From Escherichia phage vB_EcoM_Lh1B, in sequence record OK428535.1: a DNA stretch of 64,000 nt. One strand, given 5' to 3'. Numbering within the stretch: position 1 is the first letter of the stretch; each line of letters opens with the position of its first letter. A program made the position numbers and the translations under genes. The notes beneath the pieces were generated by a model. That model was not told the origin of the DNA, ran no database searches, and worked only from the letters and a program-made list of their open reading frames with translations. Below are positions 5,237 to 64,000 of this stretch, piece after piece.

Positions 5237-5258
5237 CTCAAAAAATTGAGGTACTATT

Positions 5259-5669: not shown

Positions 5670-5682
5670 GTAAGGAAACAAC

Positions 5683-35883: not shown

Positions 35884-36303
35884 ATGAACAATATCGCGTT
35901 TGAAAAAGGCGTTGGCTTACTTCTGAACAACACCATCGTCGCTGGCACTAATAACGCNAACTGGGAAGCGTTAGCACAACGTCTCAAAGACAAGCCGGTG
36001 AAAATCGTGGTGACGAGCGAGTTACCGTTAAACGGCACAATGGCAAACTGTGGTCCAATGTTTGCAGCGTTTAATGTCGACTATGATTGCGGCTCCGCTT
36101 TCTTACAAAACGCCGCGTTACGTAGCCGTCTGTACAGCTGGCGTTTACTAGGTCCGGTAAGTAAAGCCGCAGGTCAAATGGTTAACCAGGGAACACCGAT
36201 GTCGGGTGTAGAAGACCAGACTATCGCCGTTGTCGTTTCTCGCGCAACCGGCCAGCTTAACTTTGCAATCTGCTACGCGTATCAGGAGGAGGAGTATGTT
36301 TAG
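35884..36303 (+). CDS. hypothetical protein (139 aa)
   Basis: AAGGAGAACTATAATG start context. Confidence 0.6.
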   Translation: MNNIAFEKGVGLLLNNTIVAGTNNXNWEALAQRLKDKPVKIVVTSELPLNGTMANCGPMFAAFNVDYDCGSAFLQNAALRSRLYSWRLLGPVSKAAGQMVNQGTPMSGVEDQTIAVVVSRATGQLNFAICYAYQEEEYV

Positions 36304-37156
36304 TATCATTCAGCAAGTTCAAGCGGTCGAAGAGTGGTTTCGGCAAGCGGATATTTACCAATACGGGACACGCGAGCAGCAGCTAGCCAAGTTCTATCGC
36401 ACATTAGGCGACGTCGCTGAAGGTGTGCAGAAGATGGACAACTTGAAAGTGGCGGCGGCCATGGGTCGCTCTCTTTGGGCGTTCGTTGGTCTGTTGCACT
36501 TCGGCAAGCACACGAACGTGGGAGATTTCGTTATTCCACTGGATGCAGCTATAAAAGACCGCACCACGGGAAACACCAAAGAGTTCCGTCTTCATAACCT
36601 TTTTGTTGTTGCCACCGAAGTGGTTGGACTCATATTGCAAGATGAGCACGAGCCCCACAGCTACGTTACCGAGCTGCATAGTTTGGCGCGACAATACCGA
36701 ATGTTGGCGCGTATCTGCGGCCTGGAATTCGGCCGTGTAATATACAACGGACATCGTGTGCTAATCAACACGAAAGGTGAAATGAACGGCATCGGGTTGT
36801 TTGTTCCCGCGTCTGATGATTTTACTGGCGATAAATTGCCTGGTTCTAGACAGATGTCTGGGCCAGCCATCTGTCTGATGTTCCAGACTGTCCTGGACAG
36901 TTGTGTCGCTACGCACCTTGCGCCCTATTGCCACCGGCCGTTTAAACGCGACGAGTTGCCGACAATCAATGCTGCACTCGCAACTACGTTAAACGAACTG
37001 CTGGACAAATATGTTCGTGACTCAGTGCGCTGGAATCGTATCCTGTTCGAACGTGTACCTGAAATAACCGCAGCCTACACAGATGGCGGTGTGAATGTGG
37101 TGATGAATGATGATCTACTTTACTTATTTGAAAGCTTAAAGAGGGATAGTATCTAA
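36296..37156 (+). CDS. hypothetical protein (286 aa), possibly all-alpha NTP pyrophosphatase-like (weak)
   Basis: Start set to ATG 36296 (AGGAGGAGG upstream); stop overlaps thyA start (TAATG). Confidence 0.6.
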
Positions 37157-38187
37157 TGAAACAGTATCTTGAAATGATGCAGAATATTCTGGATGAAGGG
37201 CATGTTAAAGGCGATCGTACTGGGACAGGGACGCTCTCCGTCTTTGGTCGCCAAATGCGTTTTGATTTGCGCAAAGGTTTCCCGTTAGTCACGACTAAGA
37301 AACTCCACCTGCGTTCTATTATTCACGAACTGCTGTGGTTCCTTAGTGGCGATACCAACACCAAATATCTGGAAGATAACGGCGTTACCATTTGGCGGGA
37401 GTGGCAAGATGAAAATGGGAACCTTGGCCCCCTGTATGGGGAACAGTGGAGACGTTGGAAAGATGTGAAACTGGTGCCTAAGAAAAATGCAGCTTTACTC
37501 GAGAAACTGCAAGATGCTGGATACGTGGATTATGGCGACGCGGACGACGGTTCACAAATGTTCGATGCGCGTGTACTTCTGAAACTACACGACCAAATCT
37601 CTAAGGTGATTGACCAACTGCGTAACGATCCTGACAGTCGCCGTATTATTGTCAGCGCATGGAATGTGGGTGAGTTGGATCAAATGGCGTTAGCGCCGTG
37701 TCATGCTTTCTTCCAATTTTACACTCGTGAGCTGTCTATCGACGAGCGGGTGAATTGGGCAGAAGATAACGATAACGAACTCTGGTCTGATTATGTCCAC
37801 AGCACGTACGTACCCGCACCTAAGCGATTAGAGTGGTTGGATAAAGCCAACGTGCCAACCCGTATGTTGTCATGTCAGCTGTATGCACGTTCCCAAGACT
37901 TCTTCCTGGGAACACCGTTCAACATCGCGTCTTACGCATTACTCGTACACATGGTAGCTCAGCAAGTTAACATGGTCCCGGGCGATTTCGTTTGGAGTGG
38001 TGGTGACGTACATCTGTACTCCAACCATCTGGAACAGGCTAAATTGCAGCTGACGCGCCAACCTTTACCTTTACCGAAACTGGTCATCAAGCGTAAACCG
38101 GATTCTATCTTCGATTATAAGTTCGAAGATTTCGAAATCCGGGATCACGTATCCCATGAAAAAATATCTGCACCTGTCGCTATCTAA
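37156..38187 (+). CDS. thyA: thymidylate synthase (ThyA-type) with two in-frame insertions
   Basis: [38 protein letters not shown]...[18 protein letters not shown]...[32 protein letters not shown]...[29 protein letters not shown]...[10 protein letters not shown]...PKLVIKRKP...FEDFEI matches E. coli ThyA blocks including catalytic Cys and PFN motif. Confidence 0.9.
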
Positions 38188-38199
38188 TTAGGAGCGTTT

Positions 38200-38736
38200 A
38201 TGGCTGACAACGTCGTTCCATTCAAACCTAAAGTGGCGGTTGCTACGGACGAACCGCCGTTTATTCCTGTCAATGGACAGAAGATCATCGAGTTTCCAGA
38301 CGAACATCGTGGACAATTGCACGTTCCACAACCGGACGGGACGATGAAAGCTATCGGTTTCCCGATAGCTGAACAAGAATGGTGGACGCTTCTGGCCATC
38401 CAGATGATGTCGCGTGGTCTGGGTGTGTCTACGGAACCTGTCGTTCGCATTAATACCGACCCGTATATCCACGAACAAGGCAGTTGGATGGAACGACGTC
38501 GGACAATGGAGATGCAGATTAGCAAAGAAACGCTTTTGCAAATCGCAGAATCCACACCTTTCATCCTGACCTCATCTTTTAACGGGGATATGGATGAAGA
38601 CCTCTACATGCACCTTTCAGGCTTAGCAGCTGAGCACCGTATTGCAGAAGAAGAGCCTATCTATACCGAAGCGATGATTATCCATCCGACCGGCTTAGAA
38701 GGTAATACCTTTAAACTGATTTGGGTGGAGCTATGA
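38200..38736 (+). CDS. hypothetical protein (178 aa)
   Basis: ORF track; GGAGCG upstream. Confidence 0.65.
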   Translation: MADNVVPFKPKVAVATDEPPFIPVNGQKIIEFPDEHRGQLHVPQPDGTMKAIGFPIAEQEWWTLLAIQMMSRGLGVSTEPVVRINTDPYIHEQGSWMERRRTMEMQISKETLLQIAESTPFILTSSFNGDMDEDLYMHLSGLAAEHRIAEEEPIYTEAMIIHPTGLEGNTFKLIWVEL

Positions 38737-38984
38737 CTGACCGACTTACTAAAACAATTCGACTACCACAAGAGCGTAATGTTCGCAAAGGCGTTGTTTT
38801 AACGGGGGAACAACGGGTTGAATTAAAGGCCCTGTTCCCGGAACAAACCGATTATCATGTCGACCAAACGGNATTAAAAGAGTTTGCAAAGAACGCTCCT
38901 GAAATGCTGCTGCGTAAGAAAGAAGAAGAACTGAATATGCTCCGTAACAGCGTAGACGTTCTCTTTAAAACAATGGAGAAATAA
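38733..38984 (+). CDS. hypothetical protein (83 aa)
   Basis: ATG 38733 with GGGTGGAG upstream (track ORF begins at TTG 38721). Confidence 0.5.
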   Translation: MTDRLTKTIRLPQERNVRKGVVLTGEQRVELKALFPEQTDYHVDQTXLKEFAKNAPEMLLRKKEEELNMLRNSVDVLFKTMEK

Positions 38985-38985
38985 G

Positions 38986-39753
38986 ATGATGAAGCTCTTT
39001 GCGTTCTCCGATGAATTCTACACAGTGGAATTCGACGACTACGAATACGGGTTATTAGGGGCCGTCGACATGGAAGACGCTAAACGGCAGCTTCCCACTA
39101 GCGAAATAGAAATCATTGAGATTGGGGAAACTAATCTTAGTGGTATTTTGATGCTGGGGCGGCGACCNCGNCCTGNGGAACCNGNGNNGGAAAAANAGNA
39201 AANGNNANNGNTTTTTTTGGTTTTTGAGCCGAAAGACCCCGCAGCGATAGCGAAGGTAGTCGATACGTTACGGCCACAGATTGGCGTCGCGATTGAAAAT
39301 TATCGNTGGGCTCGTTTCTCAGGCGACACGCCGATATTTTCGAATAAGCACTGGTTGTTATGTATCAACAACGACACGATAATGGTACCGTTAACAGGGG
39401 AGAAGAATTTTGAAGATAACTTCGTCCCTGGCGAAGAGTCTGTTATCTTCGAGTATACCCATGTCATCGGAAAGCCGAGCTTCTACCAAGTTCTGATTGA
39501 TGTCTTGACTCACGTCGGTCGAACCATCGAATACCACTACTGGGCACGCCAGGCGCGTTCTAAATGGTTCTCGTTGACGTACGTCGAAGGTTGGGAACGT
39601 GTTGTTGAAAAGATTGACGGGCGCTATGAGCAGATTTGGTTCCTGAACCCGGCTTTCCGTGAAGAATTACCCGCATGGGTAAAAGAAGAGGCGAGCAAGC
39701 TGACGGTTGGCTTTACTAAGCAGGGCGCGCCGTATATGGTTAACTACAAATAA
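38986..39753 (+). CDS. hypothetical protein (255 aa)
   Basis: ORF track; n-masked segment. Confidence 0.65.
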   Translation: MMKLFAFSDEFYTVEFDDYEYGLLGAVDMEDAKRQLPTSEIEIIEIGETNLSGILMLGRRXXPXEXXXEKXXXXXXFLVFEPKDPAAIAKVVDTLRPQIGVAIENYXWARFSGDTPIFSNKHWLLCINNDTIMVPLTGEKNFEDNFVPGEESVIFEYTHVIGKPSFYQVLIDVLTHVGRTIEYHYWARQARSKWFSLTYVEGWERVVEKIDGRYEQIWFLNPAFREELPAWVKEEASKLTVGFTKQGAPYMVNYK

Positions 39754-39764
39754 GGTGAAAACAG

Positions 39765-40244
39765 ATGTCTATAACTCGGATCGATTATCGTGCCGTAGTA
39801 AAAGAACTGTCCAAAGGTCTTATCGAACTGGACTCCGATGAAGCCCGCAACTGTGGCTTCCTGCCACACATTGCACTGAGTGAGTTCCGTACCATCCGTT
39901 ACGGTGCCGGTCGTCAGAAGGGCGTTACAACACACACCGTTGATATGTCAGCAAAGTTCCACGGCAGCGTTCTGTATCTGGTCCACAATGAATCGTTACG
40001 AAACGAAGTAGTGGAGAAGTTCCATGAAAAGGCTGCCGGGAACGGTTGGTTGACCGTGCACTGTAACTACTTGCCTGAGGGTTGGAAACGCGCGACAGGT
40101 GCTGGTATATCCGGCTACGAGAAATTCGGCTTGGTTATTGTCGACGAAGCGGGTTTCTTCTTCAACAAGTTCAGTTACGATAAAATCTATCGCAGTCTGG
40201 TTGACGTAGTAACGCCAGACGTTGTGATTCACCTGATTAATTAA
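39765..40244 (+). CDS. hypothetical protein with P-loop-NTPase-like fragments
   Basis: YGAGRQKGVTT (deviant Walker A-like) and GLVIVDEAGFF (Walker B-like). Confidence 0.55.
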   Translation: MSITRIDYRAVVKELSKGLIELDSDEARNCGFLPHIALSEFRTIRYGAGRQKGVTTHTVDMSAKFHGSVLYLVHNESLRNEVVEKFHEKAAGNGWLTVHCNYLPEGWKRATGAGISGYEKFGLVIVDEAGFFFNKFSYDKIYRSLVDVVTPDVVIHLIN

Positions 40245-40256
40245 GTAGAGGAAAAT

Positions 40257-40445
40257 ATGGCTGGAGAACTCGGTCGTGGGCAAGCCACAACGTTCATGTA
40301 TCGTGATGGGTTAGGTGCGGATGTAAACATGTCTCCGGATGACGAGATGGTTATCCCTGGACTTGACCCCGACGCAGGTGTGGAAGGTGGCGTTGACCCG
40401 TCGAAAGACGACGACAACTGCACTGGTGGTGCGTGCAAGATTTAA
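40257..40445 (+). CDS. small highly acidic protein (62 aa)
   Basis: AGAGGAAAATATG start; about 13 Asp/Glu versus 4 Lys/Arg; followed by terminator. Confidence 0.5.
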   Translation: MAGELGRGQATTFMYRDGLGADVNMSPDDEMVIPGLDPDAGVEGGVDPSKDDDNCTGGACKI

Positions 40446-40455
40446 AATACGTATT

Positions 40456-40490
40456 AGGGTGTCCATATGGACACCCTACTTATTTTTTTG
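40456..40490 (+). terminator. intrinsic terminator
   Basis: AGGGTGTCC-ATAT-GGACACCCT hairpin followed by ACTTATTTTTTTG. Confidence 0.75.
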
Positions 40491-40507
40491 TTTAAGGAGC
40501 TATCAAA

Positions 40508-41449
40508 ATGGGCGAACGTTTCATTATCCAGATTCCGTATAACGTTATTGTTGAACCTAATCAGTACCTGGCACAGATTAATGAGCTTCTGGCTGGATTC
40601 TGCCAACGTCAGTTTGTTAAACCGNGGTCCTTTGANAAACTNTACACCCTNTGCGNGAACAGNGAAACCGGTCACACTTACGTCGAAGGTAAAGTCTTCA
40701 NAGGCNACCAGCGTTTGGAAANAAATGATTTCGAAATGCCGTGGACGTTGGAGGGTGTCGAATATCGTGGTACGGTTGATCGCCCGCGTTACGTGCCTTT
40801 GTACACCATCCCACAATGTATTACTAACGTTATGGGTTGGTCTAAAGCGCGTGGTATTCTGGATAACGGCGTCTGGTATAGCCAAGCCACCAAACTCTAC
40901 GAAGAAGACGGTGAAGCAGCAACCGGCATCAGCAAAACCAAAGAACGTCTTATCATGGACGGCCTAGGCGATGCAATGGTGGTACTGGTTAACTTGATGG
41001 AACTCATTAAGTTTGACTCAACCGATATCACCACATACGTCAACGACGCACGTTCAAAGAAACCACACGCCGGGAACAGTCATTACCTGTTCCACAAAAT
41101 GCGTTTCCATCTTACTTGTGCAGTTGATTATATCTGGGATCAGGCAGGCATCGACTCAGCTAAGCAACTCGAATATAAACACTTCGAGAACAGCGACGCG
41201 GTAATGATCGAATGTCACTTCGCGCAGATGGTCGAATACGCCAATGCGCTGGCTAATGCGTACAACATTACCCTGGAACAGTGCTTCTCACTGGCTTGGG
41301 ATGAAATCAAAGACCGTAAGGGTTTCCTGAACGCGGACGGTATCTTCGTTAAAGAAGCAGACATGACCGCTGCTGAAATCGAAGTAAACGGTTCCCTTAC
41401 TGTAAAAGATGAGGCGCTTACCGATGGCGAAGAAACTGTTCACGGTTGA
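40508..41449 (+). CDS. possible MazG-like NTP pyrophosphohydrolase (313 aa)
   Basis: YEEDGEAATGISKTKERLIMDGLGDAMVVLVNL and ITLEQCFSLAWDEIKDRKG resemble the MazG EExxE...GD and C-terminal helix motifs; N-terminal part n-masked. Confidence 0.5.
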   Translation: MGERFIIQIPYNVIVEPNQYLAQINELLAGFCQRQFVKPXSFXKXYTXCXNXETGHTYVEGKVFXGXQRLEXNDFEMPWTLEGVEYRGTVDRPRYVPLYTIPQCITNVMGWSKARGILDNGVWYSQATKLYEEDGEAATGISKTKERLIMDGLGDAMVVLVNLMELIKFDSTDITTYVNDARSKKPHAGNSHYLFHKMRFHLTCAVDYIWDQAGIDSAKQLEYKHFENSDAVMIECHFAQMVEYANALANAYNITLEQCFSLAWDEIKDRKGFLNADGIFVKEADMTAAEIEVNGSLTVKDEALTDGEETVHG

Positions 41450-41846
41450 TTACGATGAATACGTTGATCGTTTACTGGTCAACAATATCGTCTGGGAAGA
41501 CCACGGTCTAATGCCATGGCATCTGAAACTCCTAGCGGAGCGTTCAGAACAATGCGGTGGTTTGGAGTTCGTACTCACCGACACACCAATTCCGGTACCT
41601 CATATTGCGCCGGTAGAAAATCTGTACTTCTTCGATGCTAATGTGAAGTTATTACAGCAGGTACTCTATACGCATGACTGGCGTGGTGGTTGTCAGTTCC
41701 CAGAGAACGTTCTAAAGCTCTCTGAGCGCTTCGGCACCGACATTGCATACTGTCAAACGTTCCCAAAAGACTTGGGACGAAACAGCGTGGTACTGTGGTA
41801 TTACCCTCCGGTAAAAGACATCGTGAAAGTGATTATCGAACGCTAA
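41424..41846 (+). CDS. hypothetical protein (140 aa; start uncertain)
   Basis: ATG 41424 (GAGG upstream) or ATG 41409; overlaps 3' end of previous gene; followed by bidirectional terminator. Confidence 0.55.
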   Translation: MAKKLFTVDYDEYVDRLLVNNIVWEDHGLMPWHLKLLAERSEQCGGLEFVLTDTPIPVPHIAPVENLYFFDANVKLLQQVLYTHDWRGGCQFPENVLKLSERFGTDIAYCQTFPKDLGRNSVVLWYYPPVKDIVKVIIER

Positions 41847-41856
41847 AAAATAAAAG

Positions 41857-41900
41857 CAAACGAGTACCCCGTAAGGGGTACTCGCGTTACTTATTTTTTT
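41857..41900. terminator. bidirectional intrinsic terminator
   Basis: CGAGTACCCC-GTAA-GGGGTACTCG hairpin with A-run upstream and T-run downstream, between convergent gene blocks. Confidence 0.75.
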
Positions 41901-41902
41901 TG

Positions 41903-42454
41903 TTACGCTTGAGTCATGTCGGAGATGTCATAAACCAGACCGTTCAACTCAGTAACGGTGATCAGTTTACTGATATCGACACCATCGCTCGGAACTTCGG
42001 TCAAATAAACTTCAACCGTACCCGTCCACGCCAGTGACTTTCCATTGAAACGCAAATTGTGTTTCGTGGAAGACGTCATTGACTCGTTTGCGTAGATCTC
42101 CGATACGTCAATCATCCAGTTATACTTAGCCTGCAATAACGGGACAAGATCAGCAGCAGTAGATGCGCTACTACCGTCCACAGACAGCACCACGTTTTCA
42201 AACAGGTGGGCTACGTCCAATCGACGGTAAGTAAGACCCATCTTACCAAACGTACCTTTCTCAACGATACCAGAAACATCGAGACTGGTGTTCAGTCTGG
42301 TGTACTGTTCTGGGTCAGGATCGGCTGCGGTGATGTGCGACGGGTTACCGAACGACAATTTATCGATGGTCACGCCCTTACCAGTCAGTCCGGGATTCTG
42401 GGACACGATAAGATCGTAAACCAACTCTTTTGCGGTCTTTCCAAATAAACTCAT
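41903..42454 (-). CDS. hypothetical protein (183 aa), possibly structural
   Basis: Last gene of the minus-strand block before bidirectional terminator. Confidence 0.65.
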   Translation of the reverse strand: MSLFGKTAKELVYDLIVSQNPGLTGKGVTIDKLSFGNPSHITAADPDPEQYTRLNTSLDVSGIVEKGTFGKMGLTYRRLDVAHLFENVVLSVDGSSASTAADLVPLLQAKYNWMIDVSEIYANESMTSSTKHNLRFNGKSLAWTGTVEVYLTEVPSDGVDISKLITVTELNGLVYDISDMTQA

Positions 42455-42476
42455 AATGCGCTACCTCTGTGGTGTA

Positions 42477-44738
42477 TTATCGCGCTTGTGGTAGGAAAAT
42501 GTTCGCGATTTGTCGTGCCGGTATGATATCTAACGCGGCGTTGACGATGCTGCCCTGTGACCAGGNACTTGCCCNNTTCTNCGCCCAGATAGACGCGTTG
42601 ATTTTAGCCTGCGCGATACCGTTGGTACGCTCGTAAAGCGTGGCAGCACCCAACACAGACATAAATTCACTGAACTTGTTATCATCATCAAACACACCAA
42701 TATCAGTTACAATCGGCATGTACATAACACGCGACAGGTCGCGAATAGTTACCTGTATATCACACGACAACGGCAGACCGTCAGCACGCCACCCTAACCC
42801 ACCTGTACCAAACTGGAGACTCAAGTTAGTTACCATGGCATTACGCATGGAATAACGACCACGAGAATAACACTCCAGATAGAACGGGTGCGTAAACGAT
42901 TGTTTACCGGTTGCTAACGGGCAAACTGCCGCTAACCAGAACGACAACGGGACAATCAGATCCTGGAACACATCTAAGTCGTTACCCGACCAACAGCGAA
43001 GAGGAATGCTTAGCGAGATATCGTCACCTGAGGTGTCTGAGGAGTCCCACACTTCCGGGAAGTCAATCACTGACGAGTTGTACAGCGACATAATCCCTGA
43101 TAAATGCAAGAAATCGAGTGCGCCTGTAAAGGCGGACTTCAACCCAGTAATGAGACCATCGACTGCGTCGAAACCAGTCTTACCACCAGAGAGGTTTACT
43201 TCCAAAGAACGTGCTTTCTGTGTGGCGGAGTTAACCGTGCCAGAGATTTCAGGTTCTTTGGTGGTGTTGGAGAACGAACGCCCTACGGTATCACGTCCAT
43301 CAACACGCCAAGTAATCCACTGCGAACCATTGCGTATCTCCGAAGCGATGTTCGAAGTTAACCCATCCATAGCGCCTTCTAAAATATCGATATAGTCTTT
43401 GAAGACGCTACCGACAGATTCTTTCTGGCCTTGGTCCATCCAGTTTTCAATCTTCCCAATGTCGAGATTATTCTCATCCATTGAGTTTGCTTCGGTCTGA
43501 CTTTTAGCAACCTGAGCCTGGTTCTTTTCAACCTGTGCCATACGCTCGGCAAGCTCTTTACGTTGCGCATCACCTTCGTTTTCGAAGTTTTCAGCTTTAC
43601 CTCCTTGTGACTGAGCATCCTGAATGCTTCCGTTCATCCCTGCTACCAGTTCGTCTTCTTTGTTATCGACGTTTTCAAAACCGGCATCGTACCCTTTACC
43701 GGCTTTGGCTACGTATTCAAGGTTACGTAAAGAAACCTCGTACTGCGCAGCTTTCTCCAAATGGGTTGTTGAGTACGTCGCTTCCAGATAGAAGTTTCGC
43801 AAACGTCGAGCCATGTCCTCTTCGTTACTCGACTCTTTACGAATTTTATCGATGGTTTTCGCCTGGTAGTTGGCTAATGTTTGGTAGCGGTTAATCATTC
43901 GATAGATATCGAACTCACCATCAGCTGTCCAGATTTCTGGCAGCATGGAGTACCACTCTTTGCGGTCGCCGTTGTACTTATTAGCAGTACCGCCTTTCTC
44001 AGACCCATCTACAGCATTAGCAAGCTGGAAAGTCCCTAACACACCCGTTGGTACCAATCGGCGATAAACTAACTGGGTGTTGACCATATTCTGCACAGCG
44101 CGCAGATACAAGTGCATTGTCGGTTTCACGTAGTAGTAGCGAGAAGTCTGCTTGTTCAGCACCATCTTCAACATACGTGGTGTAATTAGAATAACCGCAA
44201 AGGCAACCGTACCTACCGCGGCCCATATTGCTGCGGCGGCAACATACGTCCCCATCGCACGTAACATACCTGGGTAGTCACCTGTGCGCGCCAGATACGC
44301 TAGGTTGGAATCGTACATATTCGCGAAGAATGCAGCGACCCCGATATATCGAGGTTTACCGAAACGACAATGAAGATAAAAACTGTTTTGGTTAATAGCT
44401 TCGTAATAGAAAGTACCTAGACGATAGGAACCACGTTGGTCTTGACCTTTAACGTACTTTGAGTACGAGCCACGACCTGCATCAGGTTGTGCAAAAGCAC
44501 CTGTTGAACTCGGATCAGCAAACATCGTAAACTGCGGCGGCGCATTTAACGCTTGCGAACCACCCATCGTGGTATCTTCAAACGAGAGCATCGCGTTAGA
44601 GTAACGACGCAAACCCAGGAAACGCTCATCGCGTTGTGCGGTTGTACCGCCAAACAGGCCGGTTACCCANCCNNAATCTTTTAGTTGTCTTGCTTCCATG
44701 TAAAACCTCTCTGTAAGATGATTAGGGGGTGTTGCCAC
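42477..44738 (-). CDS. hypothetical virion-associated protein (753 aa)
   Basis: Long minus-strand ORF immediately downstream of the giant gene; internal hydrophobic segment GTYVAAAAIWAAVGTVAFAVILI; coiled-coil-like middle. Confidence 0.75.
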   Translation of the reverse strand: MATPPNHLTERFYMEARQLKDXXWVTGLFGGTTAQRDERFLGLRRYSNAMLSFEDTTMGGSQALNAPPQFTMFADPSSTGAFAQPDAGRGSYSKYVKGQDQRGSYRLGTFYYEAINQNSFYLHCRFGKPRYIGVAAFFANMYDSNLAYLARTGDYPGMLRAMGTYVAAAAIWAAVGTVAFAVILITPRMLKMVLNKQTSRYYYVKPTMHLYLRAVQNMVNTQLVYRRLVPTGVLGTFQLANAVDGSEKGGTANKYNGDRKEWYSMLPEIWTADGEFDIYRMINRYQTLANYQAKTIDKIRKESSNEEDMARRLRNFYLEATYSTTHLEKAAQYEVSLRNLEYVAKAGKGYDAGFENVDNKEDELVAGMNGSIQDAQSQGGKAENFENEGDAQRKELAERMAQVEKNQAQVAKSQTEANSMDENNLDIGKIENWMDQGQKESVGSVFKDYIDILEGAMDGLTSNIASEIRNGSQWITWRVDGRDTVGRSFSNTTKEPEISGTVNSATQKARSLEVNLSGGKTGFDAVDGLITGLKSAFTGALDFLHLSGIMSLYNSSVIDFPEVWDSSDTSGDDISLSIPLRCWSGNDLDVFQDLIVPLSFWLAAVCPLATGKQSFTHPFYLECYSRGRYSMRNAMVTNLSLQFGTGGLGWRADGLPLSCDIQVTIRDLSRVMYMPIVTDIGVFDDDNKFSEFMSVLGAATLYERTNGIAQAKINASIWAXXXASXWSQGSIVNAALDIIPARQIANIFLPQAR

Positions 44739-44747
44739 CCCCTACGA

Positions 44748-47700
44748 TTAGCTTGCTTTCCGACTTACGTTTAACGACGGTGTCGGTTGGGTTATTTCCT
44801 GCCTACGTGCAGCTGAGCCCGGAGGAGGCACATTTGCCGCTTGCTGGATACTACCACCCCGTGTGTCGTTTGCCGCTCTTGGATTTGATTTCAAAATATC
44901 ACGAATCTCTTTCAAGTAATCGCGAGACTGAATCAGTACCTTGAGCTGCTGAACATCTATCGGGTCACCATTCAGCGTTGGCGTCGATGCTGTAGCATCA
45001 GAAGTTGGGGCGGCAATTGGACGAGCTGCTGCGTTAACCTGCGCTTCCGCGCCTGCTTTCACTTTAGCAACATCCGTCNCAGACAATCCTTCTGCTGCAG
45101 CTTGCGACGCTACGGTTTCGGCCGTTGTTGAGGCATCGGATGTTCCGGTACCGCCTGTGGTTGGNGTAGGTGCTGCTGGTCCTACATTACCTGCGGCGGT
45201 AGCCATTGCATCTTGTGCCGCCATGGCCCCTTTCTGCGTCAATGCGTCATCACGACGATTAGCATTATCTGCTGGCAGGTTATCTGCNGGCGACAGACTC
45301 GGGTCATTAGCGGCCGGTGCACCCATTGCCGCTGCCGGGTTAGTTGGTGAATTAGGCGACAATCCTGCAACCATATCCTTCGTCTTGCTCGGAACGGCAG
45401 CGACTTCGTTGGCGGAAATTGCGCCCATGCGGCGGTTCAGTTCCTGAATAACCCCGTCTACGCTACGTATACGACCGTTGCTGTAGAAGACGTTGGCATT
45501 CCCTCTCAGTATTGCGGATGTAATCCCAGGAGCACTCGATGCCGCCATATTCGGATTACGCTTCCATGCTTCCAGGAATTTCTTACCGCCGCCTGCACCC
45601 AGGAAGTGGTACAGATAAGCCACGGCTGGNGGNGGTGCTTTACCACCCAGGTCACGTTGTGCTTTTTGGATGTTGTCACGAATGAACTGTACACCCAAAA
45701 TANCATNCNCCCNCGGGNCCNTCTGGTTAACACGCGGAANACCNAACTTCCNCGAANACCCCTTCATCATCCCGTCCCACGNGCCGTTAACAAACTGGAA
45801 CAACCCAGATGCCGAAGCATACGGGTTTTTAGCGGTGTAGTTAAATCCGGACTCCNCCTTAGCCATTGCTAACGCCACTGCAGGTGGCACGCCCATCATG
45901 TTCGCTGCATCGGTAATCAATGCTTTGATATTCGGAACGTTCAACGCACCCTTTCTACCCAACATTTCTATCGGGTATTTTTCAGCCAGTGACTTATAAT
46001 CACCGTCTTTCACTTCACTCAGGTTAATCGAAGACGAACCAGTGGTCATTGCAGCGTAGTTCCGCACACCGCCAACCGCATCGACGACTTGACCCAAGTT
46101 ACCCGGCACACCACCACTCGTACCCGATGGAATGTAGCCTGAGGCGCGAGCACCGTCAGATGACAAAGAATCTCCCGAACTGATGTTCGAGTCTTCTTCA
46201 TCTTCACCGGTAACTTCCAGAGAACTGCGGTTCTTGTTACGATCCTTCCAGCGTGCACGCTTGCCATTATTTTTAATGGCTTTAATCATGTTACGCACGG
46301 CAAGGTCAGCTTCTTTTGACAACAGCTTCAGCGTTTCCAGCTCGGCTTTGATAGACGATGGGTTCGTGTTAGCATCGCCCCCTAGTGGGTTGATGTTCAC
46401 TTCCCACACCGACTGTCTTATACCGCCTTTCAGGCTGTAGGCAGTTGACATCATCAGACTGATTTCGTACAGGTAGCCGCCGGTCAGTTTCAAGTTCAGC
46501 GGATCGGCTGTTGGCAGGTAACGCTTCACCCCAACCAAATACGTCATGAATACCGGTAAGAAGCGGTCAAAGAACCACCGTTTCAAACGATCTTCTTTCG
46601 GTGTGCCGATAGCGTCTGGAACCATCGAGGCGATGGCTTTCTTCCAGTCACCTTTATAGCTTGCGGTTTTCACGTCGATGTCTTTGATGACGTTCTTCTC
46701 GAATACCGTAATCAACGTGCGTGTGGCGTTGTCGATGGTGGTAAAACCATAAGTCTTCCAACGCACCGACTCCATCGCATTCATGTCTTTCTGGTCGAGC
46801 ACCGCGTTCCAGTCTACCTGAATCTGAACCTGCTCTGTTCCGTCTTCCCAACCTTCTACCTTCGCCAGATTTTTATTACGTTCGTTATCCAACTGTCCAA
46901 GTTTGTTGATAGCTTCATCAACACCCGCGGACTTAATCCCCTCCACGGCCGGTGCCATTCCGTACTTACGNGCTTTCTTATCGTCCATTCTGAACTTGAT
47001 TGCACNCNCGACTTCATTCTGCACTTCCATAACCTCTTCACCGCTCAAAAACTCCTTCGGTGTAAAGGTTACAACGTCCCAGGCTTTCGAGAAGAAGCCT
47101 TGGTTGACTTTGCGTGGGTCTGTTAACGAAGAGAACGCTTTTGCATCCTTAGTCATCTTCATTTTGTTGAAGAGTGTCTGCATGTCCTCTTTCGATACTT
47201 TCTTAGCATCGCCGACGTCAGCCAACTGGATACTATTCGGCATTGATTTCAGTGCCGNAATCCAGCGGAGATAAATCGGAATAAAGCGCTGAAGCATAAA
47301 CGCTTGGAAGGCCAACATCTCGCCTTTTTCCTCGACGTTAATACCGAACCCTTCAGCTAACTTCTGAACGTCTTTTCCACCTAGCCCACGGAGACTGGCT
47401 TGGCCATCTTCCGCGTAAGACACATACTCACGCAATGCGTCTTCTAAGTAACGCGCTTTCGCCCCGTCATCCGACGACCACTTATCGTAATCACGGAAAC
47501 CGTACTGAGCTAAACGCATCTTATCCAGGTACTGGGTATAGGTAGTCGTTGCGATCTTGTACNCGGCGTAACCNNCCNCGGNGNNCNCNCCACCGATAAG
47601 AATTGCCGGCCAACCCACCGCAGTCACGACGGCAGAGGCCCCGGTTCCCACNNCGGNCACCNCGGGTGCCNCCAAACGGGTTACTGCGAACTTACCAACA

Positions 47701-51722: not shown

Positions 51723-51898
51723 CGCCGACTTCCTGGCAACATTCAGGGTACTGAGTATCGGGCTTCGTTTTTTCTCGTCTTTGGGACGGGGNGGTTCNCC
51801 NAAANCNTCCCANTCGTCGANTNTATCTAAATCNATATCATCNAAACCNTCTTTNCCTCTTTTTGCCNTAANNTTTNTTCCAATTNAGGAGNTTAAAA

Positions 51899-53512
51899 AT
51901 GACAAAGCTAAAATGGGTTNACTTTTACTTGTTAAACNNCAACAAGTCCCTGGTGTCGCATTTAAAACCAGTTACAACAACAGACACCTTTCAGGGACTG
52001 ACGAAAAACTTTCACCCTGAAGGACTGTATTCAACCGAAATTTTTGGCCTCACAGGGAGCGAAGCACGAGACTCAACGTTCTCGTACATTGATATCAAAC
52101 TGGATATCATTTCGCCGACCGTTTGTTTGGCATTGTTCCAGCTGAAACAGCTGTACGAAGAAATCTGTTCCGGGAAGCGATTCGCTATCTGGAATGAGAA
52201 AGAAAAAGATTTCGAGCCGGCTCTGCCCAGTGATAAAGGTGCAGACACCGGCTTCAACTTCTTCCTACGCTACTACGAACAACTGACACCGGGACGCAAC
52301 GAATCGATGCGTCGCGACGAGACAGTCGATTTCTTCAATAAGTTCCGTCCGGTCAGTCTCAGCCGCTATGTGCTGGTTCTGCCTGCGGGATTACGTGATT
52401 TGGTCATTCGTCAGGATGGCCGCGACCAAGAAGAAGAGATTGGCGGACTCTACCGTCGTCTGATTTCTCTGGCGCGTGCAATCCCCGACCGCAGTACGCG
52501 AACGGAACTGACTGACCCGGTTCGCTGGAAGCTCCAACAAACCTTTAATGATATCTGGATGTACTTCTTCAACATCCAGGATGGTAAAGGTGGTTTTGCA
52601 CGTCGTAAAGTGACGTCACGTAAGTTAATGAACGGTACGCGTAACGTACTGTCTTCATTCTCAACCGGTTCCAAGGTCATGGGTCGCGAAGATGCGATTC
52701 GTCCAACGGATACCCGTATCGGTTTGTACCAAACCCTGAAGGCATTACTGCCTGTGGCTCAATACCACATCCGTGAACGTTACCTCAGTAACATCCGGGC
52801 AGGGGACGGCAACTTATACGGCGTTAACACCAAAACACTCAAGCGTGAGTTCCTGGAAGTCTCCGGGCGGGTGTATGACCTTTTCACTACCGACGATGGC
52901 ATCGAAACACTCATCAACAGAATGGAAGCGCGCGAGCTTCGACATAAACCGCTGATGATTGATCCGGACCATTACGTGGCATTAATCTACCAGGACAAAC
53001 GCAGCTTCAAAATCTTTTACGATATTGAAGACCTGCCGGAAGGACGTGACCGCAAGCTTGTCCGCGGACTGAGCTTAGCAGAACTCCTCTATTTGTCAGG
53101 TTACGATATTTGGAATGACTACTTCTCGTTCATCACGCGTTATCCGGTTACGGGACGCGGTTCGACTTACTCCTCGACCATAAGATTGGAGACCACCACC
53201 TCTTCCCTCTATTTGCATGAACTGGAAGACGATTGGGNCACGTTAAAAGANAAGGGNGCAATTNGNTTCCCTGACCGTACCGTGAAAACNTTTGTGGAAT
53301 CCATGGCACCACATCCANCCCNATTAGGGGGNTTGGGNGGNGACNACGANGGNGACACCGGCNCANCAAANAGCCCGATGTCAACCGAAGCGCTCGNGGA
53401 AAATCGGAAGTGGGTCAGTTCGAAAAACTACTGGTTTGCAACAGACGGCAGTTTCAAAATCAATCCGGTTAACAACGTGATTAAAAGAACGACTGCTGCG
53501 CTGTTGAAATGA
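51899..53512 (+). CDS. RNA polymerase beta-prime-like subunit, N-terminal fragment
   Basis: FSYIDIKLDIISPTV and VLVLPAGLRDLVIRQDGRD....IGGLYRRLISL align with E. coli RpoC HIELASPTAHIW and [35 protein letters not shown]; partly resolved GGD-x-(D/E)-GD-TG at 53342-53362 compatible with the DxDGD catalytic loop. Confidence 0.75.
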   Translation: MTKLKWVXFYLLNXNKSLVSHLKPVTTTDTFQGLTKNFHPEGLYSTEIFGLTGSEARDSTFSYIDIKLDIISPTVCLALFQLKQLYEEICSGKRFAIWNEKEKDFEPALPSDKGADTGFNFFLRYYEQLTPGRNESMRRDETVDFFNKFRPVSLSRYVLVLPAGLRDLVIRQDGRDQEEEIGGLYRRLISLARAIPDRSTRTELTDPVRWKLQQTFNDIWMYFFNIQDGKGGFARRKVTSRKLMNGTRNVLSSFSTGSKVMGREDAIRPTDTRIGLYQTLKALLPVAQYHIRERYLSNIRAGDGNLYGVNTKTLKREFLEVSGRVYDLFTTDDGIETLINRMEARELRHKPLMIDPDHYVALIYQDKRSFKIFYDIEDLPEGRDRKLVRGLSLAELLYLSGYDIWNDYFSFITRYPVTGRGSTYSSTIRLETTTSSLYLHELEDDWXTLKXKXAIXFPDRTVKXFVESMAPHPXXLGXLXXDXXXDTGXXXSPMSTEALXENRKWVSSKNYWFATDGSFKINPVNNVIKRTTAALLK

Positions 53513-53530
53513 TACCCATAAGGCACATGT

Positions 53531-57736: not shown

Positions 57737-57783
57737 TGTAGGGCGGGTCGCTCCCGCCCGGTAAATAAACTCCGGAGTTAATA

Positions 57784-59549: not shown

Positions 59550-59564
59550 TAAAGAGAGGTGGTC

Positions 59565-60287: not shown

Positions 60288-60349
60288 CTGAGGTAGGGTT
60301 ATTGTACGTCCCCAATAACCCGCTTCGGTAATAACAACTGGGGAAACCA

Positions 60350-61153: not shown

Positions 61154-61156
61154 AAA

Positions 61157-61786: not shown

Positions 61787-61841
61787 TGCCTAGTTCGTGG
61801 TCTGCAAATCACAACTAAAAACCACTACAGTAGGGGGACGC

Positions 61842-62141
61842 ATGAAGGTCGTTAACATCGCAATACCTCCGACCCTTCGTTGTTTGACGCCGGAAGAACT
61901 GAAAGCGTTAGCGATCTACGCTATCCAAGGAAAGGCTGGTAAAGAAGTGCTTGCCGAAATCTTATCGAAACGTTTTGATACAAAACGCAAGGTTAATAAC
62001 ATTATCTCCGGAATCGCGTCGCTAGATATCATGGCACTCTATTGCGACATTAAAGAGGCTGGAGTGACAATCGACTATCGCCGTACTTACTTTCTACTCA
62101 CTGAGCCGTATCGTTCGAATATGGCAATAAAGCAGATGTAA
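61842..62141 (+). CDS. hypothetical protein (99 aa)
   Basis: ATG 61842 with TAGGGGGA upstream. Confidence 0.55.
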   Translation: MKVVNIAIPPTLRCLTPEELKALAIYAIQGKAGKEVLAEILSKRFDTKRKVNNIISGIASLDIMALYCDIKEAGVTIDYRRTYFLLTEPYRSNMAIKQM

Positions 62142-62194
62142 TTTTTTACATGACGTTGGTTTCATGTGTTGGGGAACAAAATAAGGACAAGAAA

Positions 62195-62743
62195 ATGTTT
62201 TATCTGGATAGCGATGGCGTTTTTGCACGCTGGCGTAAATACGTTTTATCCACACATTTTCCCGGAANGACGATTAAAGAGTTTAACGCATTACCTGAAC
62301 TCCGCCGTCGTAGTTTGGTTCGTTCGATGTATCAGAACGATCCTGACTTGTTTTACAAACTCGAACCAATTGAGGGTGTAGAGCGAATCCTGGAAACGGT
62401 AGATAGACTTTGCGACAGTTGGGCAATACTCACCTCTGGGTCAGAAGATCACTACGACCACCAATTGGTTGTGGATTCAAAACAACGGTGGTTCATGAAG
62501 CACTTTGGGGTACCAGCTGACAAAGTCATCGTCACCGAAAGTTCAGGGCAGAAGAAAGCTTACGCCTCGCGAGGTAATTTGCTTGTCGACGATTATGGTC
62601 GTAACTGTCGAGAATGGATTTTGCAAGGTGGTGCGGCGATATGGTCGCGAACTGAAGAACCGAACATTGATGGCATTTGCCTCCAGTGTGAAGCGTTCTA
62701 CAATGACCCGATTACTCACTCGGGGACACTACTGCAAGTCTAA
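62195..62743 (+). CDS. HAD-superfamily phosphatase, 5'(3')-deoxyribonucleotidase-like
   Basis: Start ATG 62195 (AAGGACAAG upstream); N-terminal FYLDSDGVF (DxDGV motif I), LTSGS and LLVDDYGRN (DD motif IV). Confidence 0.6.
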   Translation: MFYLDSDGVFARWRKYVLSTHFPGXTIKEFNALPELRRRSLVRSMYQNDPDLFYKLEPIEGVERILETVDRLCDSWAILTSGSEDHYDHQLVVDSKQRWFMKHFGVPADKVIVTESSGQKKAYASRGNLLVDDYGRNCREWILQGGAAIWSRTEEPNIDGICLQCEAFYNDPITHSGTLLQV

Positions 62744-62752
62744 GCTCTACTA

Positions 62753-62796
62753 GGCTCATCCTATCTTCGGATACGGGTGAGCCTTTTTATTTTATT
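62753..62796 (+). terminator. intrinsic terminator
   Basis: GGCTCATCC...GGGTGAGCC stem (one mismatch) followed by TTTTTATTTTATT. Confidence 0.6.
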
Positions 62797-62814
62797 AATT
62801 GCATTCAAAAAGAA

Positions 62815-62840
62815 CTGAGATATATATTACTTAGGTGAGC
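62815..62840 (+). promoter_or_regulatory. class A upstream motif (phage promoter-like)
   Basis: CTGAGATATATATTACTTAGGTGAGC; downstream of terminator, followed by hairpin AGCGTTA-CACG-TAACGCT (62838-62856). Confidence 0.5.
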
Positions 62841-62856
62841 GTTACACGTTAACGCT

Positions 62857-62872
62857 TTAATCGACTATTACC
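62857..62872 (+). promoter_or_regulatory. class B upstream motif
   Basis: TTAATCGACTATTACC after hairpin, before GAAGGAG RBS. Confidence 0.45.
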
Positions 62873-62889
62873 CAGAAGGAGTATTTACA

Positions 62890-63288
62890 ATGACTAACCA
62901 ACTACGCCAAGACCCGTTTGTTGCCATGATGCTTTGTGCTAAAGCCGAGAGCAACGAAGCCGATTTAATTCGTCTGTTGACTGATGACGAATACCTTATC
63001 TCTGAACGTGATAAACGTTTAGAAGAACTCTATAAGCCAGAAACCGGTGAATCGCTCGGTAATCAAAACGCCTGGAAATTTCTTATTCTCGTAGCTGATG
63101 AAAAATGGCGAGCAGAAAATCCCATCGTCTGCGATATTACAGACTTACCGTACAAATACGGCGGACTCATCACTAGCGACCTGCATCTTAAAGCGTTCTT
63201 TGCTGGTGAAGCAATTCAAGAACTGCAAGATGTTCTTGTTACAGCAACAAACACTTTGAGACGTTTACGCGCTGAGCAGCTAATCTGA
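62890..63288 (+). CDS. hypothetical protein (132 aa)
   Basis: GAAGGAG upstream; preceded by class A/class B motifs. Confidence 0.6.
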   Translation: MTNQLRQDPFVAMMLCAKAESNEADLIRLLTDDEYLISERDKRLEELYKPETGESLGNQNAWKFLILVADEKWRAENPIVCDITDLPYKYGGLITSDLHLKAFFAGEAIQELQDVLVTATNTLRRLRAEQLI

Positions 63289-63342
63289 TCCCTCAAAAAT
63301 AACGAATCGTACAAATCCTTTGACTGTGTAGGAAGGAATAAA

Positions 63343-63732
63343 ATGAAAATCGCAGAGGGGTTAGTAGATGCGTGCAGAGACCCATTCACGCTATGGGTTC
63401 TTTGTGGCTTGCGCCGAGACGATCGTTTCGGTGAGTTTGTTCGAAATCCAGATGCTTTACTAAGCTTCGTAGAAAGCGAGGAGAAGCGTTTAGAGGAGAT
63501 TAAAGAGGAAAGTAGTACCCTTACACCAGATATGGTGGTTTATAGCCGTATGACGTCACACAGGTGGCGTACGACCCATCGGCTGAAGGGAACCTCAATG
63601 AAGGAATTGATTGAAGGGTTATCAAAGGCGCTTTCGTCTGATAACATTATCTGGCCGGTGGTGTATACCAACGAAGACCATTCTGATAACGTGAAGGTTA
63701 CACTGACACGTTGTTATCACACATTCTCGTAG
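63343..63732 (+). CDS. hypothetical protein (129 aa)
   Basis: GGAAGGAA upstream. Confidence 0.6.
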   Translation: MKIAEGLVDACRDPFTLWVLCGLRRDDRFGEFVRNPDALLSFVESEEKRLEEIKEESSTLTPDMVVYSRMTSHRWRTTHRLKGTSMKELIEGLSKALSSDNIIWPVVYTNEDHSDNVKVTLTRCYHTFS

Positions 63733-63736
63733 TAGT

Positions 63737-63752
63737 TAATCGACCATTATCG
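63737..63752 (+). promoter_or_regulatory. class B upstream motif
   Basis: TTAATCGACCATTATC about 15 nt before the TAAGGAA RBS of the HD-domain gene. Confidence 0.45.
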
Positions 63753-63766
63753 TAAGGAATATTTAC

Positions 63767-64000
63767 ATGCAGGGCACTGAACTCAACAAACTTTGGGAAA
63801 AACTGGTTCGTCAATTCCGCGACTTCTATCGTTATACCGATAGTGCGCATCGCATGGATCACATCAACTCAGTTAAATCAAATGCGATTCGTATCGCGTA
63901 TATGCTTGGGCAAACCGAACACCTGAAGCTGATACTGATTGCGGTGGCAGCTCACGATATCTTCTCTACCAAAGAAGACCGTGCGTCGCACCACATCAAA
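63767..64000 (+). CDS. HD-domain phosphohydrolase-like protein, 5' part (continues past right edge)
   Basis: ATG 63767 with TAAGGAA upstream; ...SAHRMDHINSV...IAVAAHDIFS fits the H...HD signature; no stop before window end. Confidence 0.5.
   Translation, partial: MQGTELNKLWEKLVRQFRDFYRYTDSAHRMDHINSVKSNAIRIAYMLGQTEHLKLILIAVAAHDIFSTKEDRASHHIK

Follow-up and report, generated by a model that had tools for sequence, protein, structure and literature searches.

Putative dTTP-synthesis and nucleotide-hydrolase genes in a 64-kb region of the SPN3US-like jumbo phage vB_EcoM_Lh1B

Introduction

Phage T4 carries, in gp56 (dCTPase/dUTPase), Td, Frd and gp1, an all-alpha NTP pyrophosphohydrolase, a ThyA-family synthase, DHFR and a dNMP kinase, and at the gene-set level the jumbo phage considered here is similar. 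The T4 synthase Td has surface inserts, as does the ThyA described below. In addition, the T4 gene is interrupted by a group I intron that carries the I-TevI endonuclease. A relative of our phage has an intron of this kind in thyA, whereas the thyA analyzed here has none. A further difference from T4 is that dCMP hydroxymethylase, dCMP deaminase and ribonucleotide reductase were not found in the annotations and scans of this phage group.

The object of our analysis was a stretch of 64,000 nucleotides (hereafter, the window) of Escherichia phage vB_EcoM_Lh1B (OK428535.1), in which a preliminary description had recognized several nucleotide-pool enzymes around thyA. The window is 97.5% identical, with no indels, to the sister genome of Escherichia phage vB_EcoM_EC001, and it comes from a nucleus-forming jumbo phage of the SPN3US-like type. 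Everything outside the window, and the full length of the one gene cut by its end, was read from EC001, with this level of identity in mind. According to our analysis, the window carries some of the genes of an ordinary phage module that makes and cleans dTTP for canonical DNA, a reading to which we assign a probability of about 0.7.

Results

Genomic context and gene order

All five genes were present as open reading frames where they had been placed earlier, and they agree with the CDS calls of the record MN445185.1, which is collinear with the window at an offset of 160000. The genes are indeed dispersed, but to call them a set overstates the case: they form two small clusters separated by 21 kb, in which genes for tail fibers, virion proteins and a virion RNA polymerase intervene on both strands. 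In the genus Machinavirus the order of an inactive MazG paralog, thyA, four genes and a MazG-like gene is kept, as is the neighborhood of the HAD and HD genes, and the arrangement inside each cluster is conserved across genera. Because the genomes are collinear overall, this conserved order lends little weight to a functional coupling. Pfam and PHROG scans of the 15 neighboring ORFs of both clusters revealed no further nucleotide enzymes; except for one virion protein, these ORFs belong to families of unknown function. An Rfam scan of the window at the gathering threshold gave no matches. The GC content of the window (44–53%), compared with ~51–52% in E. coli and Salmonella, fits an extra demand for thymidylate.

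It is possible, although not likely, that the genes are no functional set at all but independent housekeeping-type genes that may be expected in any 240-kb phage, their grouping being a construct of the reader. The distance between the clusters and the nature of the intervening genes point in this direction, as does the location of the genes for DHFR and thymidylate kinase at a distance of ~100 kb or more; moreover, few genes are conserved in jumbo phages as commonly as those for thymidylate synthase and DHFR (PMC13282480; PMC7824862). However, the arrangement within the clusters persists across genera, with the inactive paralog joined directly to the thyA start, and all of the proteins act on one class of metabolites.

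Thymidylate synthase

The thyA gene (37156..38187, plus strand) encodes a 343-aa thymidylate synthase of the canonical E. coli type, as indicated by Pfam, NCBIfam and the catalytic residues. The protein matches Pfam Thymidylat_synt with E = 2.3e-110 and exceeds the NCBIfam equivalog cut-offs of NF002499 (430.1 bits; cut-off 405) and NF002497 (403.5; cut-off 327), as well as that of TIGR03284 (348 bits; cut-off 108). Three blocks are ~75–80% identical to E. coli ThyA structures. The protein contains R21, E58, R162, R163, C182, R245, D248, N256, H286 and Y288 and ends in APVAI; of these, R21, R162, R163, C182, R245, N256, H286, Y288 and APVAI are the same as in E. coli. The catalytic Cys, the phosphate-binding arginines, the Asn responsible for preferring dUMP to dCMP and the folate-closing C-terminus are all kept. 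Judged by its sequence, ThyA is a bona fide dUMP-to-dTMP synthase.

Two surface inserts were delineated. Insertion 1 (residues 103–145; 37462..37590, plus strand), recognized as a gap against E. coli ThyA, varies in sequence among close relatives. Insertion 2 (residues 192–236; 37729..37863, plus strand), recognized in the alignment to E. coli ThyA, is hypervariable and lies just upstream of the site that holds a group I intron in a relative; nucleotide identity to SPN3US is 43–51% within it, compared with 95–97% over the preceding 550 bp. In one relative the thyA region harbors a group I intron together with an I-TevI-like endonuclease, and in another it bears a recombination scar; this part of the genome is a mobile-DNA hot spot. 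The presence of two divergent patches flanking conserved DNA suggested co-evolution of insertion 2 with the allele of the upstream paralog. This was rejected, because the relative L012 pairs an A-like allele of the paralog with an SPN3US-like insertion 2, while L013 carries a third type of insertion 2. Intron homing and recombination account for the divergent patches around thyA.

MazG-like pyrophosphohydrolase

The gene at 40508..41449 (plus strand) encodes a protein of 313 aa, for which the earlier proposal of a MazG-type NTP pyrophosphohydrolase was correct as to the enzyme class. It consists of an N-terminal alpha/beta domain specific to jumbo phages (residues 1–97; 40508–40798, plus strand), a catalytic helical domain (residues 99–287; 40802–41368, plus strand) and a disordered tail. 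Seven acidic residues (E132, E133, E136, D151, D155, E266 and D269) are invariant in 24/24 diverse homologs and form an intact metal site of the pattern EExxE ... D/ExxD. The protein has the helical-bundle fold of the superfamily, with dimeric dUTPases as the closest fold, followed by MazG, and it matches MazG families in PHROG. Against Pfam MazG (PF03819) the window copy scores 16.7 bits and the P0067 copy 18.6 bits, below the gathering cut-off of 22 bits; among the members of the family, 18 of 24 match this model at E <= 1, and the strongest of these matches reaches 3.1e-4. Taken together, the protein is predicted to be an all-alpha NTP pyrophosphohydrolase with its metal site intact.

A sequence link to the dimeric dUTPases was sought and rejected. 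No match to the solved dimeric dUTPases in the PDB (C. jejuni 1w2y, Leishmania 2yay and staphylococcal phage 5myd) was obtained with phmmer or with the family profile, and a homolog from a small staphylococcal phage, used as a bridge, gave none either. The Pfam model of dimeric dUTPases was matched by 0 members of the family. The resemblance to dUTPases is at the level of the fold only.

Probably inactive paralog upstream of thyA

The gene at 36296..37156 (plus strand) encodes a protein of 286 aa, its stop codon overlaps the start of thyA by 1 nt, and it adjoins thyA across genera. Residues 1–175 form a domain of the all-alpha NTP-PPase fold, with the helical bundle of the superfamily, and residues ~189–286 form a family-specific C-terminal domain. 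Scaffold anchors are kept throughout the family (K32, Y34, G38, G43, K46 and G57), whereas all seven acidic positions are replaced in its 21 members (R35, T/H/Y36, variable 39, A/S54, variable 58, R147 and variable 150), two of them by conserved arginines. No member of the family matches Pfam MazG. The preliminary description had listed this protein as a weaker all-alpha candidate; the MazG-type fold was recognized correctly, but the protein cannot be counted as a pyrophosphohydrolase, as all metal-binding acidic residues are gone. It is probably not an enzyme, and we regard it as a putative inactive, fast-diverging copy of the MazG-like enzyme: identity to the SPN3US counterpart is 40.6%, compared with 95–98% for the neighboring genes, and highly divergent alleles have been swapped within one genus.

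The arginines in place of two glutamate ligands, the added C-terminal domain and the fusion to the start of thyA could also be taken as signs of a dedicated non-catalytic derivative of the all-alpha NTP pyrophosphohydrolases, acting as a nucleotide-sensing regulator of thymidylate synthesis, a partner of the active MazG-like enzyme, or a nucleotide sponge or decoy that counters host immunity. We consider so specific a function improbable.

HAD and HD hydrolases

The gene at 62195..62743 (plus strand) encodes a HAD-superfamily protein of 182 aa that was assigned to the 5'(3')-deoxyribonucleotidases of the NT5C family from Pfam, phrog_2643 and its motifs. It scores 33.8 bits against Pfam NT5C (cut-off 24.8), matches phrog_2643 at 8.4e-19 and reaches E ~0.008 against mdN/cdN structures in the PDB. 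Both motifs on which a HAD-type nucleotidase had been proposed were located: DSDGV at residues 5–9 corresponds to the motif I nucleophile DxDx(T/V), and D132-D133 to the acidic pair of motif IV. The protein is 99% conserved in the genus and 42–82% in Erwinia and Cronobacter jumbo phages. An NT5C-type deoxyribonucleotidase is the predicted identity.

The last gene (63767..64000, plus strand) is cut by the window end and comprises the N-terminal 78 of 223 residues of an HD-domain phosphohydrolase; the full gene in EC001 is at 223767–224438. The ligands H28, H32, H63-D64, H111 and D131 are the same in all 22 homologs, and the first four (H28, H32 and H63-D64) lie inside the window fragment. The family profile matches the HD hydrolase 2pq7 (E = 5.7e-6) and YedJ 3gw7 (E = 0.05), and a match to NCBIfam PRK10119 (E = 2.5e-5) falls under its cut-off. 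Pfam HD is matched by nine of the 22 family members (best E-value 6.5e-6), and the window-type sequence alone gave no match to it. The HD-domain assignment made earlier was right, and the gene is expected to encode a YedJ-like metal-dependent phosphohydrolase.

Overall, the profile searches upheld every guess of fold or family, with E-values far beyond chance; these are matches at the profile or fold level, and the window's own sequences miss the cut-offs of Pfam MazG and Pfam HD.

Discussion

Proposed role in dTTP supply

The sister genome EC001 encodes DHFR (159 bits) and thymidylate kinase (59.6 bits), which complete the dTTP branch. No trimeric dUTPase or CDA-type deaminase was found by means of its sparse annotation and scans with simple regular-expression motifs, nor was such a dUTPase found by tblastn with hand-written queries. 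The MazG-like enzyme would convert (d)NTPs to (d)NMP and pyrophosphate, and, by analogy with T4 gp56 and the dimeric dUTPases, its most plausible substrates would be dUTP, dCTP or damaged dNTPs. Because the genome has no conventional dUTPase, this activity would supply ThyA with dUMP and exclude uracil from the phage DNA. The HAD and HD enzymes would trim the pools of dNMP or dNTP, while the inactive paralog would bind a nucleotide or a partner protein without catalysis. A role in remodeling or sanitizing the dNTP pool, as had been suggested, is reasonable, and the four enzyme classes were assigned correctly.

A role in host takeover or counter-defense seems rather unlikely. In such a scenario the hydrolases would destroy nucleotides with which the host signals or raises alarm (for example (p)ppGpp, cyclic oligonucleotides or dNMP danger signals), or would offset defenses that deplete dNTPs, and the inactive paralog would be a nucleotide sponge, decoy or inhibitor in an arms race. 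E. coli MazG does act on (p)ppGpp, and the two conserved arginines of the paralog could bind phosphates without metal. Defense modules that deplete dNTPs, consisting of MazG-like or calcineurin-type enzymes with HAD phosphatases and triggered by dNMP, have been described (PMC12871103). The divergence of the paralog from its SPN3US allele amid well-conserved neighbors would also suit an arms race, but it is explained more simply by the mobile DNA (group I intron, recombination scar) of the thyA region. Furthermore, the four proteins match no PADLOC model, and HAD and HD are highly conserved rather than diversifying. We retain a module of dTTP synthesis and cleaning as the preferred reading.

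Non-canonical DNA bases

The link to non-canonical bases drawn in the preliminary description found no support and is very unlikely: it would require the MazG-like and HD hydrolases to clear a canonical dNTP from the pool, to be replaced in phage DNA by a modified nucleotide, as happens through MazZ and DatZ with PurZ in 2-aminoadenine phages or through dCTPase or dTTPase in hmC and hmU phages. A MazG-class and an HD-class enzyme are the accessory pair of the Z-genome cluster, and the same pair occurs in this one genome; however, the two genes here are 22 kb apart instead of clustered, and the HD protein falls with YedJ and 2pq7. Iyer et al. (2021; PMC7824862) note that degradation of unmodified NTPs is a possible task of the MazG-like triphosphatases scattered in jumbo phages. 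The sister genome contains, in other regions, a Dam methylase and two radical-SAM genes, but the products of the latter have no match beyond the generic superfamily model. ThyA, above its equivalog cut-offs and with Asn256, Cys182 and the C-terminus intact, speaks against this pathway, as do DHFR and thymidylate kinase.

The Z-genome pathway was rejected, as no PurZ/PurA homolog was found: tblastn of the sister genome with a hand-written E. coli PurA query reached an E-value of 0.087 at best, its six frames contain no P-loop or GIGP motif, and no PurZ/PurA gene is annotated. Uracil-DNA of the PBS1 or phiR1-37 type, for which the lack of a thymidylate synthase is the criterion, was rejected in view of the canonical ThyA. 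For the hydroxymethyl-pyrimidine pathways, also rejected, the defining genes are absent or the thymidylate synthase is of the wrong type; no second or hydroxymethylase-type gene of this family is annotated in the compared records. In the literature searched we found no reports of modified DNA in this phage group, of the SPN3US nucleoside composition or of MazG function in that phage. These are standard phage nucleotide-metabolism genes, and they give no ground to expect unusual DNA chemistry.

Comparison with known systems

GenBank records of SPN3US-like phages already carry annotations for most of the genes, and the three accessory hydrolases are labeled in public records. The sole fresh detail is the 286-aa gene, "hypothetical" in most records, which appears to encode an inactive MazG-fold paralog and does not warrant annotation as a pyrophosphohydrolase. 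The MazG-like enzyme is the only candidate for dUTP or dCTP hydrolysis in a genome without a conventional dUTPase, and it is therefore the obvious target for studying how these nucleus-forming phages feed ThyA and exclude uracil.

Compared with hydrolases of the YedJ/2pq7 type, the HD protein has invariant H...HD...H...D ligands; these relatives are themselves uncharacterized, and hence no function can be transferred from them. The HAD protein has the DxDGV nucleophile and DD motifs in common with mammalian cdN/mdN (NT5C, PF06941), at ~20–25% identity over 100 residues. The 313-aa protein differs from the dimeric dUTPases by its extra N-terminal alpha/beta domain, which is restricted to its own jumbo-phage clade, and from MazG additionally by ~70 inserted helix residues. 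Its identity to the MazG-like pyrophosphatases encoded by many small phages is 25–33%, and with the MazG proteins of E. coli, Sulfolobus and cyanophage it shares the EExxE...D...D and distal E..D signature, where the Pfam MazG region aligns to its acidic motif, as well as the four-helix core.

Genomic setting

Judged from their sequences, the nucleotide-related genes of the window comprise thyA, with a canonical product, genes for three hydrolases (an all-alpha NTP pyrophosphohydrolase with its catalytic residues, one nucleotidase of the NT5C type and one HD hydrolase), and a gene for a MazG-fold paralog that is inactive. The five ORFs named in the preliminary description are all present and coincide with the deposited CDS calls. 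They fall into two small groups, one at 36296-41449 and the other running from 62195 past the end of the window; the approximately 21 kb between them carry genes for tail fibres, virion proteins and the virion RNA polymerase on both strands. Families of unknown function account for the five ORFs that separate thyA from the MazG gene, and for those around the HAD and HD genes. In the genus Machinavirus, pseudo-MazG abuts thyA as well, and MazG again follows after four genes; as the genomes are broadly collinear, this conserved order is weak evidence for coupling. Over the block of large virion genes on the minus strand (42477-51905), one of which is a 2385-aa ORF called tail fibre in the sister genome, the GC skew is markedly negative (down to -0.19) and the GC content is the highest of the window.

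According to megablast, 51 phage records match the region 36000-44000, and almost all of them are SPN3US-like jumbo phages of Salmonella, Escherichia, Proteus and Erwinia. The whole window aligned without indels, at a constant offset of 160000, to the sister genome of Escherichia phage vB_EcoM_EC001 (MN445185.1, Seoulvirus), with 97.5% identity outside 315 scattered N bases; EC001 stood in for the rest of the genome and supplied the complete HD gene, of which the window end cuts off a part. The N positions lie in about 60 small clusters (e.g., 39168-39306, 40625-40722, 51792-51939, and 53238-53397) and put nine X residues into the N-terminal domain of MazG and one into the HAD protein, with no effect on the catalytic motifs. 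The density of mismatches to EC001 is 0.028 near the Ns, about the same as elsewhere (0.024). For SPN3US, nucleus formation has been shown experimentally (PMC13282480).

Thymidylate synthase

The 343-aa product of thyA (37156-38187, plus strand) scored 368 bits with Pfam Thymidylat_synt and exceeded two NCBIfam equivalog cut-offs for thymidylate synthase (430 vs. 405 bits and 403 vs. 327 bits). Compared with solved structures, it shows roughly 75-80% identity to E. coli ThyA in three blocks, between which lie two insertions (residues 103-145 and 192-236). Direct indexing located all of the catalytic residues (R21, E58, R162/R163, C182, R245, D248, N256, H286, and Y288), and the C-terminus, APVAI, is the same as in E. 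coli. Given these residues, including N256, which selects dUMP over dCMP, the protein is predicted to be a dTMP-forming enzyme, not a relative of the hydroxymethylase type. The insertions (37462-37590 and 37729-37863) differ strongly among close relatives, while the catalytic core remains E. coli-like. Positively selected codons 89 and 92 have been reported in this thymidylate synthase (PMC6614189).

MazG-like enzyme and its inactive paralog

The 313-aa protein encoded at 40508-41449 (plus strand) remained below the Pfam MazG threshold (16.7 bits vs. the 22-bit cut-off), a model touched by 18 of 24 diverse homologs, but strongly matched phage MazG families (phrog_7855, 1e-138; phrog_1992, 5.5e-38; phrog_715, 2.2e-23). 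Across these 24 homologs, aligned at identities down to 41%, the residues E132, E133, G135, E136, D151, D155, E266, and D269 are invariant, and the acidic ones correspond to the predicted metal site, EExxE...D...D / E..D, of the all-alpha NTP pyrophosphohydrolase superfamily. On this sequence evidence the superfamily assignment is sound, in agreement with the probable MazG-type pyrophosphohydrolase suggested previously for this ORF. No sequence link of the 313-aa protein to the solved dimeric dUTPases was found.

The AlphaFold model of the protein is confident (pLDDT 86.8): residues 1-97 form an N-terminal alpha/beta domain, residues 99-287 are helical, and the tail is disordered. In tblastn searches, the helical domain showed 25-33% identity to MazG-like proteins of about 170 aa from many small phages, and the N-terminal domain (40508-40798) was limited to this jumbo-phage clade. 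A further C-terminal domain extends some of the Erwinia-phage-like homologs, which are 420-467 aa long. A second allele of the gene, 76-77% identical, occurs within the genus in the SPFM and SPLA5c phages; its differences concentrate in the middle helices (roughly residues 160-250), and all acidic ligands are kept.

The 286-aa protein encoded immediately upstream of thyA (36296-37156, plus strand; the last base of its TAA stop is the A of the thyA ATG) has no match in Pfam or NCBIfam. It belongs to phrog_10269 and weakly matches MazG families (E = 4.8e-7); reciprocally, the 313-aa protein matches phrog_10269 (E = 1.2e-7). In a profile-profile comparison, its residues 1-175 paired with the whole MazG-like helical domain (E = 9.5e-4, 167 columns), and the submitters of pSal-SNUABM-04 had independently marked an NTP-PPase_SsMazG domain (CDD) in the ortholog. 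The scaffold anchors K32, Y34, G38, G43, K46, and G57 are kept, equivalent to K129, Y131, G135, G140, K143, and G154 of the 313-aa protein. Column by column, however, none of the seven invariant acidic positions of the latter is retained: E132 is replaced by R35 in 18 of 21 family members and E266 by R147 in all 21, E133 by T, H or Y, and D151 by A or S, with E136, D155, and D269 variable. The sole well-conserved acidic residue in the domain, E42, lies off the ligand positions. The earlier proposal of a weaker all-alpha candidate at this locus thus holds for the fold: this is a real MazG-fold protein but, with all seven acidic positions replaced, almost certainly not a metal-dependent hydrolase.

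An exhaustive search of 1.84 billion representatives recovered only 20 members of this family. Its C-terminal domain of about 100 residues is missing in some short members and stands alone in others. The paralog could be a nucleotide-sensing regulator, could act together with ThyA or with the MazG-like enzyme, or could serve as an immune decoy, but such roles are speculative and seem unlikely.

Divergence of the thyA locus

Protein identities to SPN3US are 95-98% for the neighbours, 86.6% for ThyA and only 40.6% for the 286-aa protein, and the SPN3US-type allele of the latter is found in most members of the genus. Two divergent patches stand apart in the nucleotide comparison, at 36300-37160 and at about 37740-37900, with about 550 bp at 95-97% identity between them; when tested among relatives, the patches did not co-vary. 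The 83-aa ORF of unknown function at 38733-38984 is another locally divergent spot, 84% identical to EC001 and SPN3US between flanking genes at 95-98%.

An arms race is compatible with the divergence of the pseudo-MazG, although PADLOC defence components show no resemblance to any of the accessory proteins and relatives point to a simpler process. In one close relative (SRR34965338_151, 3881-6013; GCA_052023715.1, contig DBJTMZ010000027.1), an insert of about 1.1 kb splits thyA directly after the codon of the catalytic R245, at a position corresponding to about 37891 of the window, whose own thyA is intron-free. Within the insert are a GIY-YIG/NUMOD3/I-TevI-type ORF and a group I intron match below the Rfam threshold (26.8 bits, E = 2.5e-4); the insert looks like an intron with a homing endonuclease, arranged as in the T4 td intron. 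In another relative (SRR28562032_197), an extra 112-aa ORF (3861-4199) lies between the window-type pseudo-MazG allele and thyA; in sequence it is similar to the C-terminal domain of pseudo-MazG of the SPN3US type, and it is apparently a recombination scar from allele replacement. Such sequences indicate mobile-DNA traffic in the thyA region; because of the intron insert and the scar, the divergence can be explained by recombinational allele replacement, and no arms race is needed.

HAD and HD hydrolases

The 182-aa protein encoded at 62195-62743 (plus strand) passed the Pfam NT5C threshold (33.8 vs. 24.8 bits), matched phrog_2643 ("5'-3' deoxyribonucleotidase") and aligned to human and mouse cdN and mdN. 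Its motifs, DSDGV (residues 5-9) and DD (132-133), agree with the HAD-type nucleotidase proposed previously. Conservation is 99% within the genus, and the jumbo phages of Erwinia and Cronobacter have versions with 42-82% identity. The HD protein (63767 onward) is weak against Pfam by its own sequence, but its family has invariant H28, H32, H63-D64, H111, and D131, and the family profile matched the HD hydrolase 2pq7 (E = 5.7e-6) and E. coli YedJ (E = 0.05); Pfam HD was matched by 9 of 22 members. The ligands and the 2pq7 match confirm the HD-domain call. The two genes are neighbours in the Machinavirus relative, too.

Probable role in the nucleotide pool

Every component is a member of a known enzyme superfamily. 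Records of SPN3US-like phages already annotate thyA, "mazG nucleotide pyrophosphohydrolase" and "HD domain protein," and in some the 182-aa protein is labeled NT5C or deoxyribonucleotidase. What existing records do not contain is the recognition that the "hypothetical protein" fused to thyA is, by its sequence, an inactive MazG-fold paralog with arginine-for-glutamate swaps.

A link of these enzymes to non-canonical DNA bases, as the preliminary description suggested, is very improbable: the pairing of MazG with HD is similar to that in 2-aminoadenine phages (MazZ, DatZ), but PurZ, the defining enzyme of those phages, is missing according to annotation and crude motif and tblastn tests, ThyA is canonical, and the canonical dTTP branch is completed by the DHFR (159 bits) and thymidylate kinase (59.6 bits) of EC001. 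The annotation of all 240 kb contains no dUTPase, ribonucleotide reductase or dCMP deaminase, no second gene of the thymidylate-synthase family and no adenylosuccinate-synthetase homolog; six-frame motif scans and tblastn with E. coli Dut and PurA sequences, which are crude tests for dUTPase, PurZ, DpdA and deaminase, gave nothing significant. Two adjacent radical-SAM genes outside the window (EC001 138838-141073) matched nothing in Pfam beyond the generic superfamily model Radical_SAM and Fer4_12, and no link of them to DNA or nucleotide modification was found. In the literature searched, we found no report on the nucleoside composition of the SPN3US-type group.

Canonical dTTP supply is the likeliest mechanism. 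The MazG-like enzyme would convert (d)NTPs to (d)NMPs and, on the model of T4 gp56 and the dimeric dUTPases, may plausibly turn dUTP or dCTP into a substrate for ThyA, excluding uracil or damaged nucleotides; such a role would help a genome in which no trimeric dUTPase was found. ThyA, DHFR and thymidylate kinase would then raise the dTTP supply for a genome (44-53% GC in the window) somewhat more AT-rich than that of its host. The HAD and HD proteins may cut back the pools of dNMPs or dNTPs. In related nucleus-forming phages, metabolic enzymes remain cytoplasmic. As a system, the set finds its closest analogue in the dNTP-synthesis genes of T4.
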